64,000 nucleotides of DNA from Escherichia coli (GTDB lineage: Bacteria; Pseudomonadota; Gammaproteobacteria; Enterobacterales; Enterobacteriaceae). Of the stretch, positions 6,850 to 38,466 are shown in pieces. Each line of letters opens with the position of its first letter. The first letter of the stretch is position 1. The notes beneath the pieces were generated by a model, which was not told the origin of the DNA, did no database searches, and was given only the letters and a program-made list of their open reading frames with translations. The position numbers and the translations under genes are program-made. Location of the stretch: the NCBI RefSeq assembly GCF_003334815.1, contig NZ_QOWO01000017.1; one strand, 5' to 3'.

Positions 6850-9480
6850 TTATTGCAATTTCGCGCTGACCCAGCCTTTCACACTGGCTAACGCTGCAGG
6901 TAAGGCCGCAGCATCCGTACCACCGGCTTGCGCCATGTCAGGACGTCCACCACCCTTGCCGCCCACCTGCTGAGCGACCATACCAATCAGTTCCCCTGCT
7001 TTCACACGATCTGTGACGTCCTTAGATACGCCTGCAATCAGAGAAACCTTACCTTCGACTACCGTTGCCAGCACGATAATTGTCGACCCCAGCTGATTTT
7101 TTAAATCGTCAACCATGGTACGCAACATTTTCGGCTCAACACCGCTAAGCTCGCTAACCAACAGCTTAACACCATTAACATCAATTGCCTTACTGGAAAG
7201 ATTTGCGCTCTCCTGTGCGGCAGCTTGTTCTTTAAGCTGTTGTAACTCTTTTTCCAGCTGACGCGTACGTTCCAGTACTGAGCGCACTTTATCAGCCAGA
7301 TTATTGCTATCGCCTTTCAGCAGATGCGCGACTTCGCTTAAGCGATCGCTGTCTGCATGAACGGTGGCGATAGCACCTTCTCCGGTTACCGCTTCGATAC
7401 GACGAACGCCTGCAGCAGTACCCGATTCAGAGATGATGCGGAACAGACCAATATCACCAGTGCGGCTGGCGTGAGTACCGCCACACAACTCGGTAGAGAA
7501 ATCGCCCATGCTCAGCACGCGTACGCGCTCATCATACTTCTCGCCGAACAGCGCCATCGCACCTTTCGCTTTCGCCGCTTCGAGATCCATGATGTTGGTT
7601 TCGATCGGCAAATTGCGACGAATCTGTGTGTTCACCAGGTCTTCGACCGCACGAATCTCTTCTGGTTTCATCGCTTCGTTGTGTGAGAAGTCGAAGCGCA
7701 GCACCTTGTCGTTAACCAGTGAACCTTTCTGCGATACATGAGTACCCAGAACCTGGCGCAGCGCAGCGTGCATCAGGTGCGTTGCGGAGTGATTCAGACG
7801 AATACGGGCGCGACGAGCCTCATCAACATCAGCCTGCACCGCGTCGCCCACTTTCAGAGAACCCGCAGCAAGTTTACCGATGTGACCAATCGCCTGGCCG
7901 TATTTCTGCGTATCTTCCACCGCAAAGGAGAAGTTAGCGCCTTTCAGTTCGCCTTTATCGCCAACCTGACCGCCGGATTCCGCATAGAATGGCGTTTGAT
8001 CCAGCACGACCACAGCTTCCTGGCCTGCATTGATGGCATCAACCGCTTTACCATCAACAAACAGCGCAGTCACTTTGCCGTTCAGTTCCAGATGGTCATA
8101 GCCTTTAAATTCAGATGCACTGTCAACACGGATCATTGCGTTGTAATCGGCACCAAAGCCGCTGGCTTCGCGCGCGCGACGACGCTGCTCTTCCATTGCA
8201 GCTTCAAAACCAGCTTCGTCAACTTTGATGTTGCGCTCACGACAAACATCAGCCGTCAGGTCAACCGGGAAGCCATAGGTGTCGTACAGACGGAAAGCAG
8301 TTTCACCATCCAGCGTATCACCAGAAAGTTTTGCCAGCTCTTCATCCAGCAACGCCAGACCGCGCTCCAGAGTACGAGCAAACTGCTCTTCTTCAGTCTT
8401 CAGCACCTGCTCAACCTGCGCCTGCTGGCGTTTCAGGTCTTCACCCGCAGAGCCCATAACGTCGATCAGCGGACCAACCAGTTTGTAGAAGAAGGTTTCT
8501 TTCGCGCCGAGCATATTACCGTGACGCACTGCGCGACGAATGATACGACGCAGTACATAACCACGGTTTTCATTGGACGGCATTACGCCATCCGCGATCA
8601 GGAACGCACAAGAACGAATGTGGTCAGCGATTACGCGCAGCGATTTATTGCTCAGATCGGTTGCGCCAGTGACTTTCGCTACCGCCTGGATCAGCGTGCG
8701 GAACAGGTCGATGTCATAGTTAGAGTTAACGTGTTGCAGCACCGCAGCAATACGCTCCAGACCCATACCGGTATCTACAGACGGCTTCGGCAGCGGTTCC
8801 ATCGTGCCATCGGCCTGGCGGTTGAACTGCATGAAGACGATGTTCCAGATCTCAATGTAGCGGTCGCCGTCTTCTTCCGGGCTTCCCGGAGGGCCCCCCC
8901 AAATGTGGTCGCCGTGATCGTAGAAGATTTCGGTGCACGGGCCGCACGGACCAGTGTCACCCATCTGCCAGAAGTTGTCAGATGCGTATGGCGCACCTTT
9001 GTTATCGCCGATGCGAATAATACGTTCGCGCGGGATCCCTACTTCTTTTTCCCAGATTTCGTAGGCTTCGTCGTCGCTTTCATAGACGGTAACCCACAGA
9101 CGCTCTTTCGGCAGGGCAAACCATTTTTCGCTGGTCAGCAGTTCCCATGCAAACTGAATGGCATCGTGTTTGAAATAGTCGCCGAAGCTGAAGTTGCCCA
9201 GCATTTCGAAGAAGGTATGGTGACGCGCGGTGTAACCGACGTTTTCCAGGTCGTTGTGTTTACCACCCGCACGCACGCAGCGTTGGGAAGTGGTAGCGCG
9301 GGAATAATTACGCTTGTCGAGCCCAAGGAACACATCCTTGAACTGGTTCATCCCGGCGTTGGTAAACAACAAAGTTGGGTCGTTATGGGGTACCAGGGAG
9401 CTGCTGGCAACTACCTGATGTCCCTTACTATGGAAAAAGTCGAGAAACGCCTGACGGATCTCAGCGGTGCTCTTGCTCAT
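6850..9480 (-). CDS. alaS: Alanine-tRNA ligase AlaS (876 aa)
   Basis: Full-length translation recognised. Confidence 0.96.
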
Positions 9481-18247: not shown

Positions 18248-19758
18248 TCCTTCAATCCCAGACGTTTCGCCAGCCGATGCAGGTTGGCGACGTCGGTTTC
18301 CAGCATCCGCGCGCAGGCAGCCCAGTTGTGATGATTTTGTGCCAGTGCCTGACGAATAGTTTCACGCTGGAACGCTTCTGTCGCTTCACGCAGGTTTTGC
18401 TTAACAACGGGCACCGCCGCCACTTCTGGCGTCGGCAACGTCACCTCAGGAAAAGCAAAATGTTGCGCCTCAAGAATCACTTCATCGCCGCTGCGGGTGG
18501 CTCTCGCCAGAACTACCGCCCGATGAATAGCATGTTCCAGTTCGCGCACGTTTCCCGGAAAACTGTAGTGTTGCAGTAAATTTCGCGCTCCGGCACTTAA
18601 TACCACGCGGGAGAGCCCCTGCCGCAAACGACACTGCTCGCAGAAATACCCCGCCAGCAGAATGACATCATCGCCCCGCTCACGCAGCGGCGGCACCGAA
18701 AGTGGAAACACGCTCAGGCGATGAAACAAATCGGCGCGGAATCGCCCTGCCAGCACCTCTTCGCGTAAATCGCGGTTAGTCGCCGCCAGCACGCGCACAT
18801 CGACCCGCAAACAACGGTCATCGCCAACGCGCTGAATATCGCCATACTGCAACACCCTCAGCAGCTTGGCCTGCAATGCCAACGACAACTCGCCGATCTC
18901 ATCCAGAAACAGCGTGCCGTTATCCGCCATTTCAAACTTCCCGCTGCGATTACTGATAGCGCCAGTAAACGCTCCTTTCACATGCCCGAACAACTCACTT
19001 TCCGCCACACTTTCCGGCAGTGCAGCACAGTTGAGATAGACCAGCGGATTCACCGCCCGTGGCGAGGCTTCATGAATCGCTTTCGCCACCAGCTCCTTAC
19101 CGGTTCCAGTCTCACCGCTGATCAGGACGTTGAGATCGGACGCCGCCACAATCTCAATCTCTTTTTTCAGTTGCGTCATGCCAGGGGACAAGCCAATCAT
19201 CTGCGTCTGTTTCACCGCTTCAAACGGCGTGGCATCGCCTGGCAGCATATTCTGGCTTTCCAGTTGTTCAATCAGCAACGCATTGCTTAACGCTCCCGCC
19301 GCCAGCGCAGCAATCAGCCGTAGCTCTTCGTCGCTGAAAACATCGAACTGATCGGGCTGCATCCCGTCGAGCGTCAGTGCGCCGATCAGGTTTTGCCCGG
19401 CAAACAATGGCAGACCAACGCAGGCGTGAACCTTCAGACTCTCCTGCCCAGGAATCAAACCGTCATAGGGATCGGGCAATTCGCTGTCTGCGGGAAAGCG
19501 CACCACATCCCCGGCGCGGGCAATCGCTTCCAGCCGTGGATGCCCTTCCAGCGCAAAGCGTCTACCGAGTACATCCTTTGCCAGACCGTCGATGGCAAGC
19601 GGAATAAACTGCCGCGAATCGTAACGTAGCAACGCAGACGCATCGCACTCCAGCACCTGACGTAGCGTGGTGATCAGGCGCTGAAAACGATCCTGGTGAC
19701 CAATCCCACGCTGCAATTCGATGGCGATATTCGCCAGCACATCAACGGAAAAACTCAT
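18244..19758 (-). CDS. norR: Anaerobic nitric oxide reductase transcription regulator NorR (sigma54 enhancer-binding protein, GAF-AAA+-HTH), 504 aa
   Basis: Start moved to [21 protein letters not shown]+ motifs GETGTGKE and GAFTGA present. Confidence 0.93.
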
Positions 19759-19770
19759 CTTTGCCTCACT

Positions 19771-19826
19771 GTCAATTTGACTATAGATATTGTCATATCG
19801 ACCATTTGATTGATAGTCATTTTGAC
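19771..19826. promoter_or_regulatory. Three NorR enhancer sites of GT-N7-AC type: GTCAATTTGAC (19771..19781), GTCATATCGAC (19792..19802), GTCATTTTGAC (19816..19826)
   Basis: Three closely spaced 11-bp motifs in the norR-norV divergent region. Confidence 0.8.
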
Positions 19827-19881
19827 TACTCATTAATGGGCATAATTTTATTTATAGAGTAAAAACAATCAGATAAAAAAC

Positions 19882-19897
19882 TGGCACGCAATCTGCA
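19882..19897 (+). promoter_or_regulatory. sigma54 promoter of norVW (TGGCAC-N5-tTGCA; GG/GC spaced 12 bp)
   Basis: ctggcacgcaatctgca, 48 bp upstream of the norV ATG. Confidence 0.85.
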
Positions 19898-19944
19898 ATT
19901 AGCAAGACATCTTTTTAGAACACGCTGAATAAATTGAGGTTGCT

Positions 19945-21384
19945 ATGTCTATTGTGGTGAAAAATAACATTCATTGGGTTGGTCAACGTGACTGGGAAGT
20001 GCGTGATTTTCACGGCACGGAATATAAAACGCTGCGCGGCAGCAGCTACAATAGCTACCTCATCCGCGAAGAAAAAAACGTGCTGATCGACACCGTCGAC
20101 CATAAATTCAGCCGCGAATTTGTGCAGAACCTGCGTAATGAAATCGATCTGGCGGATATCGATTACATCGTGATTAACCATGCAGAAGAGGACCACGCTG
20201 GGGCGCTGACCGAACTGATGGCACAAATTCCCGATACGCCGATCTACTGTACTGCCAACGCTATCGACTCGATAAATGGTCATCACCATCATCCGGAGTG
20301 GAATTTTAATGTGGTGAAAACTGGCGACACGCTGGATATCGGCAACGGCAAACAGCTCATTTTTGTCGAAACACCAATGCTGCACTGGCCGGACAGCATG
20401 ATGACTTACCTGACAGGCGACGCGGTGCTGTTCAGTAACGATGCTTTCGGTCAGCACTACTGTGACGAGCATCTGTTCAACGATGAAGTGGATCAGACGG
20501 AGCTTTTCGAGCAGTGCCAGCGTTACTACGCCAATATCCTGACGCCGTTCAGCCGCCTGGTAACGCCGAAAATTACCGAGATCCTGGGCTTTAACTTACC
20601 AGTCGATATGATAGCGACCTCCCACGGCGTGGTCTGGCGCGATAACCCGACGCAAATTGTCGAGCTGTACCTGAAATGGGCGGCTGATTATCAGGAAGAC
20701 AGAATCACCATTTTCTACGACACCATGTCGAATAACACCCGCATGATGGCTGACGCTATCGCCCAGGGGATTGCGGAAACCGACCCACGCGTGGCGGTGA
20801 AAATTTTCAACGTCGCCCGAAGCGATAAAAACGAAATCCTGACCAATGTCTTCCGCTCAAAAGGCGTGCTGGTCGGCACTTCGACGATGAATAACGTGAT
20901 GATGCCGAAAATCGCCGGGCTGGTGGAGGAGATGACTGGTTTACGCTTCCGTAACAAACGCGCCAGTGCTTTCGGCTCTCACGGCTGGAGCGGCGGTGCG
21001 GTGGATCGTCTTTCCACGCGCCTGCAGGATGCGGGTTTCGAAATGTCGCTCAGCCTGAAAGCCAAATGGCGACCAGACCAGGACGCTCTGGAGTTATGCC
21101 GTGAACACGGTCGCGAAATCGCCCGTCAGTGGGCGCTCGCGCCGCTGCCGCAGAGCACGGTGAATACGGTAGTTAAAGAAGAAACCTCTGCCGCCACGAC
21201 GGCTGACCTCGGCCCACGGATGCAGTGCAGCGTCTGCCGGTGGATTTACGATCCGGCAAAAGGCGAGCCAATGCAGGACGTTGCACCAGGAACGCCGTGG
21301 AGTGAAGTCACGGATAACTTCCTGTGCCCGGAATGCTCCCTCGGCAAAGACGTCTTTGACGAACTGGCATCGGAGGCAAAATGA
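19945..21384 (+). CDS. norV: Anaerobic nitric oxide reductase flavorubredoxin NorV (479 aa)
   Basis: Metallo-beta-lactamase/flavodoxin domains and C-terminal rubredoxin CxxC...CxxC. Confidence 0.95.
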
Positions 21385-37442: not shown

Positions 37443-37904
37443 TCATGCTGCCGGGCTTTGTCCCTTTACCAGTTGGCTTAAATTCACCGGCACATTGTTT
37501 TCAATAGCGGTGTATAAGCTGTCGTAAACGCCAGCGATTTTTTCGAGATAGTGTTCCAGAACCTGTTCGCGATCGCGGATGTTGACCTTGCCATCAATCA
37601 TGCCGTCAATGCTCAGTTGCGCCTGCGCAATCCGCTGTTTGTCTTCGCCATCTTTTGTTTCGACGTAATACTCGATGGTGTGGCTGTTAAAGCCATCCGC
37701 CAGGGTGACGTAAATGCGAAAATGTTCAAAAAGGACGAAACAGAGTTCTTTGTCCGGCGCGCAGCTCATGGCGTGATGCAGGCGCGCTTTCGATAACGTG
37801 ATCCCCTGAACCAGCGAATTGCAGTAGATGTGCCACTGGTCCTGTAGGCGACGATGCCGCTGTGCGATGTAATCGGCTTTCTCGCTTATTTCCCAAATAG
37901 TCAT
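37443..37904 (-). CDS. hycA: Formate hydrogenlyase regulatory protein HycA
   Basis: Translation and operon position, 153 aa. Confidence 0.92.
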   Translation of the reverse strand: MTIWEISEKADYIAQRHRRLQDQWHIYCNSLVQGITLSKARLHHAMSCAPDKELCFVLFEHFRIYVTLADGFNSHTIEYYVETKDGEDKQRIAQAQLSIDGMIDGKVNIRDREQVLEHYLEKIAGVYDSLYTAIENNVPVNLSQLVKGQSPAA

Positions 37905-37940
37905 TGTCAGGTTACCCGTTTAACAGAGATGCCAGCTTTA

Positions 37941-37956
37941 AGCATTTTTTGTGCCA
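37941..37956 (-). promoter_or_regulatory. sigma54 promoter of the hyc operon (TGGCAC-N6-TGCT on the minus strand)
   Basis: Reverse complement ttggcacaaaaaatgct with GG/GC spaced 12 bp, about 35 bp upstream of the hycA ATG. Confidence 0.75.
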
Positions 37957-38002
37957 ACTTTTAATTTATTGTTATTAAAGAGATTTTTAAGCTAAAGATG
38001 AA

Positions 38003-38042
38003 TTTCGTCGCCGTGTCGACGTGTCATTTCGACATCATCGAC
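38003..38042. promoter_or_regulatory. CGAC/GTCG-rich repeat block between the divergent hyc and hyp promoters, candidate FhlA UAS
   Basis: tgtcgacgtgtcatttcgacatcatcgaca contains overlapping direct and inverted repeats. Confidence 0.45.
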
Positions 38043-38069
38043 ATTATTCACCGCAGGGATAATCAACAC

Positions 38070-38085
38070 TGGCACAATTATTGCT
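38070..38085 (+). promoter_or_regulatory. sigma54 promoter of the hyp operon (TGGCAC-N6-TTGCT)
   Basis: tggcacaattattgct with GG/GC spaced 12 bp, about 30 bp upstream of the hypA ATG. Confidence 0.75.
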
Positions 38086-38115
38086 TGTAGCTGGCAATAG
38101 TTAATGGGAGGCGAT

Positions 38116-38466
38116 ATGCACGAAATAACCCTCTGCCAACGGGCACTGGAATTGATCGAACAGCAGGCCGCAAAACACGGCGCAAAACGCGTAACTGGGG
38201 TCTGGCTCAAAATTGGCGCATTTTCTTGTGTCGAAACCAGCTCTCTTGCCTTTTGTTTTGATCTGGTTTGCCGCGGCAGCGTGGCGGAAGGTTGTAAACT
38301 GCACCTCGAAGAACAAGAGGCCGAATGCTGGTGTGAAACATGCCAACAGTATGTGACGCTACTGACCCAGCGCGTCCGCCGCTGTCCACAGTGTCATGGT
38401 GACATGCTGCAGATTGTGGCAGACGACGGTTTACAGATTCGGCGGATAGAAATAGACCAGGAGTGA
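38116..38466 (+). CDS. hypA: Hydrogenase nickel-insertion protein HypA (116 aa)
   Basis: Start moved to MHEITLCQRALELIE; zinc CxxC...CxxC motifs. Confidence 0.93.
   Translation: MHEITLCQRALELIEQQAAKHGAKRVTGVWLKIGAFSCVETSSLAFCFDLVCRGSVAEGCKLHLEEQEAECWCETCQQYVTLLTQRVRRCPQCHGDMLQIVADDGLQIRRIEIDQE

Follow-up and report, generated by a model that had tools for sequence, protein, structure and literature searches.

The control region between the divergent norR and norVW genes of Escherichia coli: a NorR enhancer array facing a sigma-54 promoter

The DNA analysed here, a 64,000-nucleotide stretch that we refer to as the window, is E. coli chromosome, as indicated by a 901-bp query over norR-norV that has a match of at least 95% identity in every one of 5426 complete E. 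coli genomes, with 100% identity to strain 720632 and 99.9% identity to K-12 C600. At the locus of interest, norR and the norVW pair are divergently oriented (Table 1), and the spacer between the norR start codon (CAT on the plus strand, 19756-19758) and the norV ATG at 19945 comprises positions 19759-19944, that is, 186 bp with a GC content of 32%. All three gene products score above the cutoffs of curated NCBIfam equivalogs: NorR with 822 bits against NF003451 (cutoff 476), NorV with 1043 bits against NF003954 (cutoff 711, covering residues 1-479 of 479), and NorW with 685 bits against NF003437 (cutoff 392). By these assignments, norV and norW represent an NO-detoxifying target operon located beside the gene for a NorR-family regulator. 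NorR shows no difference from its K-12 C600 counterpart and contains the Walker A motif at residue 215 and the GAFTGA motif at 262, and residues R75, R81, D96, D99, C113, and D131 are all present, among them the published GAF iron ligands R75, D96, D99, C113, and D131 (PMC4601167). NorV carries 5 substitutions near the C terminus relative to C600, with no truncation, which is ordinary strain variation. The genes rpoN and ihfA/ihfB are located outside the 64-kb window. In the collection of E. coli genomes, one of the norR-norV matches belongs to a plasmid record, and a single genome matches the spacer at three places.

Table 1. Genes and control elements at the norR-norVW locus (window coordinates)
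Feature	Position	Strand	Basis or remark
norR, NO-sensing sigma-54 enhancer-binding protein, GAF + AAA+ + HTH, 504 aa	18244..19758	-	ORF; NCBIfam NF003451
norR Shine-Dalgarno GAGG, putative	19764..19767	-	5 nt before ATG, 3 nt from site 3
NorR site 3, GTCAATTTGAC, nearest to norR	19771..19781		Tucker 2010 Site3 primer; conserved in 8 Enterobacteriaceae
NorR site 2, GTCATATCGAC, middle	19792..19802		Tucker 2010 Site2 primer; conserved in 8 Enterobacteriaceae
NorR site 1, GTCATTTTGAC, nearest to promoter	19816..19826		Tucker 2010 21-mer; conserved in 8 Enterobacteriaceae
A/T-rich 55-bp spacer, published IHF-bending region	19827..19881		~30% GC; IHF-core-like AAACAATCAGATA at 19863-19875
Sigma-54 (-24/-12) promoter of norVW, TGGCACgcaatCTGCA / TGGCACGCAATCTGCA	19882..19897	+	pattern match; TGGCACG invariant in 8 enterics
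norV Shine-Dalgarno GAGG	19936..19939	+	5 nt before ATG; conserved in most aligned enterics
norV, flavorubredoxin NO reductase, 479 aa, full length	19945..21384	+	NF003954
norW, NADH:flavorubredoxin reductase, 377 aa	21381..22514	+	NF003437; norW annotation in matching genomes

The original prediction, made from the letters of the sequence, had placed three GT-N7-AC motifs at 19771, 19792, and 19816, starting 13 bp upstream of the norR start codon and lying about 60-110 bp upstream of a sigma-54 promoter, and this layout is borne out by the sequence. Between the A of the norR start codon and the start of the nearest motif the distance is 13 nt, and the three centres are located 107.5, 86.5, and 62.5 bp upstream of the GG of the -24 element, with a mutual spacing of 21 and 24 bp. 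All three sites conform to a longer form, GTCA-N3-YGAC, that surrounds the GT-N7-AC core. We adopt the numbering of the literature, which counts from the promoter side, such that 19816 is site 1, whereas the original prediction listed the motifs from the norR side.

The bare GT-N7-AC core is low in information: the window contains 203 matches against 198 expected, which is no enrichment, and a triplet within 45 bp turned up somewhere in the 64 kb in 444 of 500 whole-window shuffles, so that the loose motif is not distinguished by the 64-kb triplet test alone. Significance was therefore judged by the extended motif and by shuffling the spacer alone, in place of the bare core. Dinucleotide-preserving shuffles of the 186 bp yielded three or more GT-N7-AC matches in 26 of 20000 cases and three GTCA-N3-YGAC matches in 0 of 20000, and the extended triplet was likewise recovered in 0 of 500 whole-window shuffles. 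The window holds one other GT-N7-AC triplet, at 9230-9266 (9230, 9253, and 9256), which is overlapping, lacks the GTCA/TGAC extension, and was taken as chance. A fourth GTCA-N3-TGAC, GTCAACGTGAC, at 19982-19992 within codons 13-16 of norV, was considered as an extra NorR site and rejected because its GT belongs to a glycine codon that, in other enterics, has a varying third base (GGT, GGC, GGA), which makes a coincidence of the coding sequence the likelier origin.

On the other side of the spacer, 48 nt before the norV ATG and facing norV, lies the -24/-12 promoter, where cTGGCACgcaatCTGCA spans 19881-19897, with GG at 19883-84 and GC at 19895-96. This promoter had been described as canonical, which holds for the GG-N10-GC arrangement and for the TGGCACG box but not for the -12 element, which is CTGCA rather than TTGCA, so that the term appears slightly generous. 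The norVW transcription start is predicted, from the usual spacing to the -12 element, near 19907-19909. Exact matches to TGGCAC-N5-YTGCW number 3 in the window compared to 0.31 expected, a count reached in 0 of 100 shuffles, and the other two are found in the hycA/hypA region, another sigma-54 locus. In K-12, binding of the sigma-54 (RpoN) holoenzyme to the norR/norV spacer has been detected as a genomic SELEX peak (PMC8743547).

The hycA-hypA divergent region (37820-38116) has features of its own. It includes a sigma-54 promoter directed towards hycA (TGGCACAAAAAATGCT, 37941-56, minus strand) and another one directed towards hypA (TGGCACAATTATTGCT, 38070-85, plus strand), and, within the coding sequence of hycA, the sigma-54 consensus is matched exactly once more (37820-35, minus strand). 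Between the two promoters, a TCGAC/GTCGAC-rich block at about 38005-38045, presumably the FhlA upstream activating sequence, holds GTCATTTCGAC at 38023 and resembles NorR half-sites.

The identity of the three sites can be traced directly to published experiments on K-12. The site-1 21-mer of Tucker et al. 2010 (PMC2831303), GATAGTCATTTTGACTACTCA, matches 19812-19832 exactly; the mutagenic primers for sites 1, 2, and 3 from the same study map to 19808-19835, 19785-19810, and 19759-19788, respectively, with the two engineered mismatches in each and no others; and the flanking primers match 19677-19696 and 19987-20006. Hence, the motifs at 19816, 19792, and 19771 are sites 1, 2, and 3 of the literature. 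When any one of these sites is changed to GG-N7-CC, norV-lacZ is no longer induced in vivo (Tucker et al., NAR 2010, PMC2831303), and the same change in any one site blocks stimulation of the NorR ATPase and open-complex formation; a hexameric ring is built from three NorR dimers, seated on the three sites (PMC2831303). NO binds to the non-haem iron in the GAF domain of NorR, so that the AAA+ domain is freed from repression (Bush et al. PMC2941729; review PMC4601167), and in genomic SELEX with K-12, NorR binds only the norR/norV spacer (PMC8249747). The enhancer architecture that the original prediction had proposed for NorR and norVW is thus supported by the concordance of the gene families with the exact match to the published NorR sites, and its assertion that the switch is intact stands as well, given that the spacer agrees with that of K-12 C600 at every base and that NorR has the same sequence as in K-12. 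The NO-, NorR-, and RpoN-dependent induction of norV has been published for K-12, with this identical spacer and NorR (PMC2831303).

Each of the 5426 complete E. coli genomes has the spacer, and among five divergent E. coli strains, the three sites are unchanged and the promoter is the same except for one base in O121 WL1277, located between the -24 and -12 elements. The substitutions in these five strains cluster at 19836-19866, within the A/T-rich IHF spacer. A wider alignment, of 8 enteric spacers, reveals islands of conservation at the three sites, at TGGCACG, and at a block in between (19861-19879), where an IHF-consensus element, WATCAANNNNTTR, is located at a constant offset. A single genome out of the 5426, that of the blood isolate AF3 (NZ_OZ547117.1; L002, 389-529), carries a precise 45-bp deletion, corresponding to window positions 19771-19815, that fuses sites 3 and 1, leaving one site. 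Recombination between the GTCA...TTTGAC repeats is the probable origin of the deletion, and given the requirement for all three sites (Tucker 2010), norVW is predicted to be uninducible in AF3.

The stretch between site 1 and the promoter is 55 bp long, without indels, in all 8 enteric species aligned. In E. coli, IHF binds between the NorR sites and the start site (PMC2831303). The IHF-consensus element at the orthologous offset deviates from WATCAANNNNTTR by 0-1 mismatch in 6 of the 7 other enteric loci and by more than one in E. albertii, and the E. coli sequence at 19863-19875 has 2 mismatches; matches to the consensus with one mismatch or fewer occur in the E. coli spacer only between sites 2 and 1 and are absent from the published IHF region. 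With the consensus being this poor at the orthologous position in E. coli, IHF binding there rests on the published footprint. In Pseudomonas and Comamonas, an IHF-consensus element is found on the other strand, at an offset that is fixed in its own right.

The position of the array bears on norR itself. The putative norR Shine-Dalgarno element is only 3 nt away from site 3, which leaves the array itself, or the DNA beyond it, as the place where a norR transcript must begin. A consensus scan for a norR sigma-70 promoter produced one weak match, on the plus strand, which is no more than expected by chance, and the -10-like hexamers inspected by eye on the minus strand (for example, TATAGT at 19785-19780) have no matching -35 element. 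A roughly threefold negative autoregulation of norR in E. coli was reportedly observed by Hutchings et al. in 2002. In Vibrio cholerae, NorR acts as a repressor of its own promoter, and does so irrespective of NO (PMC3345576), and E. coli NorR has been stated to regulate its own gene through the three sites (PMC11334186). The autoregulation of norR that had been proposed from the overlap of the sites with its promoter fits both this geometry and the published statements and, on the strength of these two lines, appears well supported.

Similar arrays are encountered beyond E. coli. We scanned one genome per species, for 100,044 species, for three GTCA-N4-GAC units separated by gaps of 5-25 bp, and obtained at least 120 loci, a sample that is selected by the motif itself. 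High-GC actinomycetes and repeat families contribute most of the 120 matches listed, as background. Among these 120, a norR homologue directly abuts the array in at least 16 loci, and in 16 of 16, the array spans 55-57 bp. In E. albertii, Citrobacter, and Enterobacter, the gaps are 10 and 13 bp, counted from the norR side, and norV lies downstream; in seven Pseudomonas and Mitsuaria, the gaps are 8 and 14-15 bp, and the downstream gene encodes an NO-inducible flavohaemoprotein (NF009805, 530-570 bits); in Comamonas, the gaps are 10 and 14 bp, and the downstream ORF closely resembles the flavohaemoproteins of Pseudomonas and Mitsuaria. A strict regular expression for sigma-54 promoters gave zero matches in the Pseudomonas loci; when these loci are read directly, TGGCACG-N4-CTGA/TTGA is seen at a fixed offset. 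The motif comparison with other Proteobacteria by which the original prediction was to be checked thus recovers the array architecture beside norR in at least 16 loci of the scan and in the alignment of 8 enterics, and these comparisons are in line with an earlier one by Rodionov et al. (PMC1274295).

In three Pseudomonas spp. loci (L024:1716-1772, L051:4448-4503, and L092:3981-4035), three-site arrays of 55-57 bp are followed by an IHF-like element and TGGCA(C/T)G, and norR is absent from the flanking DNA examined. The products of the genes downstream are an 82-aa membrane protein, an SDR oxidoreductase, and a small PAS-domain protein, which may belong to the NorR/FhpR regulon as further members. 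The middle site occupies registers of 21/24 bp in enterics and 19/26 bp in Pseudomonas and Mitsuaria. A family-level generalization, under which the centres of the outer sites lie about 45 bp apart across gamma- and beta-proteobacteria, with the middle site in either of two registers, and the array also marks possible unrecognised NorR targets in some Pseudomonas species, is a tentative proposal to which we assign somewhat worse than even odds. Such family-level geometry leaves the contents of the window unchanged.

We conclude, with a probability of about 0.97, that the feature is the norR-norVW divergent control region of E. coli, composed of a NorR enhancer and a sigma-54 promoter. The elements themselves, their identity to the published sites, their conservation and spacing, and the intact proteins come from the present analysis, and we found nothing that contradicts this explanation. 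In the corresponding mechanism, for which we draw on the literature as regards binding, the need for each site, the part played by IHF, the sensing of NO, and the assembly of the hexamer, each GTCA-N3-YGAC site would bind one NorR dimer, so that the three sites would scaffold a NorR hexamer on the DNA, and the 55-bp A/T-rich spacer, bent by IHF, would bring this hexamer to the sigma-54 RNA polymerase waiting in a closed complex at TGGCAC-N5-CTGCA. The arrival of NO at the non-haem iron of the GAF domain would then relieve the repression of the AAA+ ATPase, and ATP hydrolysis would drive open-complex formation and norVW transcription. Simultaneously, the NorR-occupied array, lying in the path of every norR transcript, would cause NO-independent negative autoregulation. 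For the strain at hand, this mode of autorepression is something we infer, as is the transcription start.

Two other explanations have to be weighed against this one. The three GT-N7-AC motifs could be functionless chance matches in an AT-rich spacer, as might be suspected from the lack of enrichment of the bare motif, the ease with which its triplets arise in shuffled windows, the second triplet at 9230-9256, and the fact that 103 of the 120 scan matches listed have no norR/norV homologue in the flanking DNA examined and are mostly background-like. Against this speak the failure of spacer shuffles to reproduce the three extended motifs, the exact match to sites that have been mutagenised and footprinted, and the islands of conservation with fixed spacing across genera. 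Chance has accordingly been refuted already, by the published mutagenesis (PMC2831303) together with conservation, and the probability that we leave to it is negligible.

It is also conceivable, albeit highly improbable, that the array is mainly an operator that represses norR, or else a site for another regulator, such as an FhlA-like EBP or FNR, with norV being activated by other means. The operator version draws on the immediate proximity of the array to the norR ribosome-binding site in E. coli, on its overlap with the norR start codon in Pseudomonas, Comamonas, and Mitsuaria, and on the NO-independent repression by V. cholerae NorR of its own promoter (PMC3345576), but an operator alone would not account for the necessity of each site for norV activation, ATPase activity, and open complexes (PMC2831303), nor for the distance between the array and the sigma-54 promoter, which is fixed in every genus examined, that is, the geometry of an enhancer. 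The notion of another regulator gains from the presence of the GT-N7-AC-like GTCATTTCGAC in the FhlA-controlled hycA/hypA spacer as well, and is countered by the K-12 SELEX experiment, in which NorR selects only the norR/norV spacer (PMC8249747). Repression and activation are compatible with each other, and the NorR enhancer and sigma-54 promoter reading, as the best explanation, includes both.

The NorR switch of E. coli is already characterised, and in this strain, the element is ordinary and identical to that of K-12. The value of the present findings lies in annotation only, and no open question is advanced: a strain with a complete NO-responsive NorR/sigma-54 switch and full-length norVW is predicted to induce anaerobic NO detoxification. 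The NorR enhancer is a textbook element of bacterial enhancer-binding proteins (bEBPs) and already serves synthetic biology as a component for NO biosensors.

Among known systems, the closest is the norR-norVW region of E. coli K-12 itself (Tucker et al. 2004, 2010; Gardner et al. 2003), with which the locus shares the identical spacer and NorR, and the oligonucleotides published for K-12 map exactly onto the locus; there are zero differences from K-12 C600 in the control region, and only NorV differs, by its 5 substitutions. The next closest are the NorR/FhpR-hmp (fhp) regions of Pseudomonas, Comamonas, and Mitsuaria, which resemble the E. coli locus in having three GTCA-N4-GAC dyads within 55-57 bp beside a divergent norR; after the array come an IHF-consensus element, which has 2 mismatches in E. 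coli, and then, at a distance that is fixed, a TGGCAC(G) -24 box. These regions differ from their E. coli counterpart in several respects. The target is a flavohaemoglobin, as opposed to the flavorubredoxin of E. coli; the distance from the promoter to the last site is 41 bp in Pseudomonas and Comamonas, and longer in Mitsuaria, compared to 55 bp in enterics; the -12 region is CTGA/TTGA, not TTGC, in most of the Pseudomonas loci; and the site proximal to norR includes the norR ATG (GTCAT...; loci L010, L016, L017, L023, L053, L065, L067, L099, and L124).

More distant parallels are provided by NtrC at glnAp2, the TyrR boxes, and the FhlA upstream activating sequence, with which NorR has in common upstream dyads, looping assisted by IHF, and ATP-dependent remodelling of the sigma-54 closed complex, and the requirement of NorR for three sites is reminiscent of the assembly of the TyrR hexamer (PMC2831303). 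What sets NorR apart from other bEBPs is that the DNA array is needed for hexamer assembly and activation of the ATPase, and that NO acts on the NorR oligomer that is already bound rather than on oligomerisation (PMC2831303, PMC2941729).
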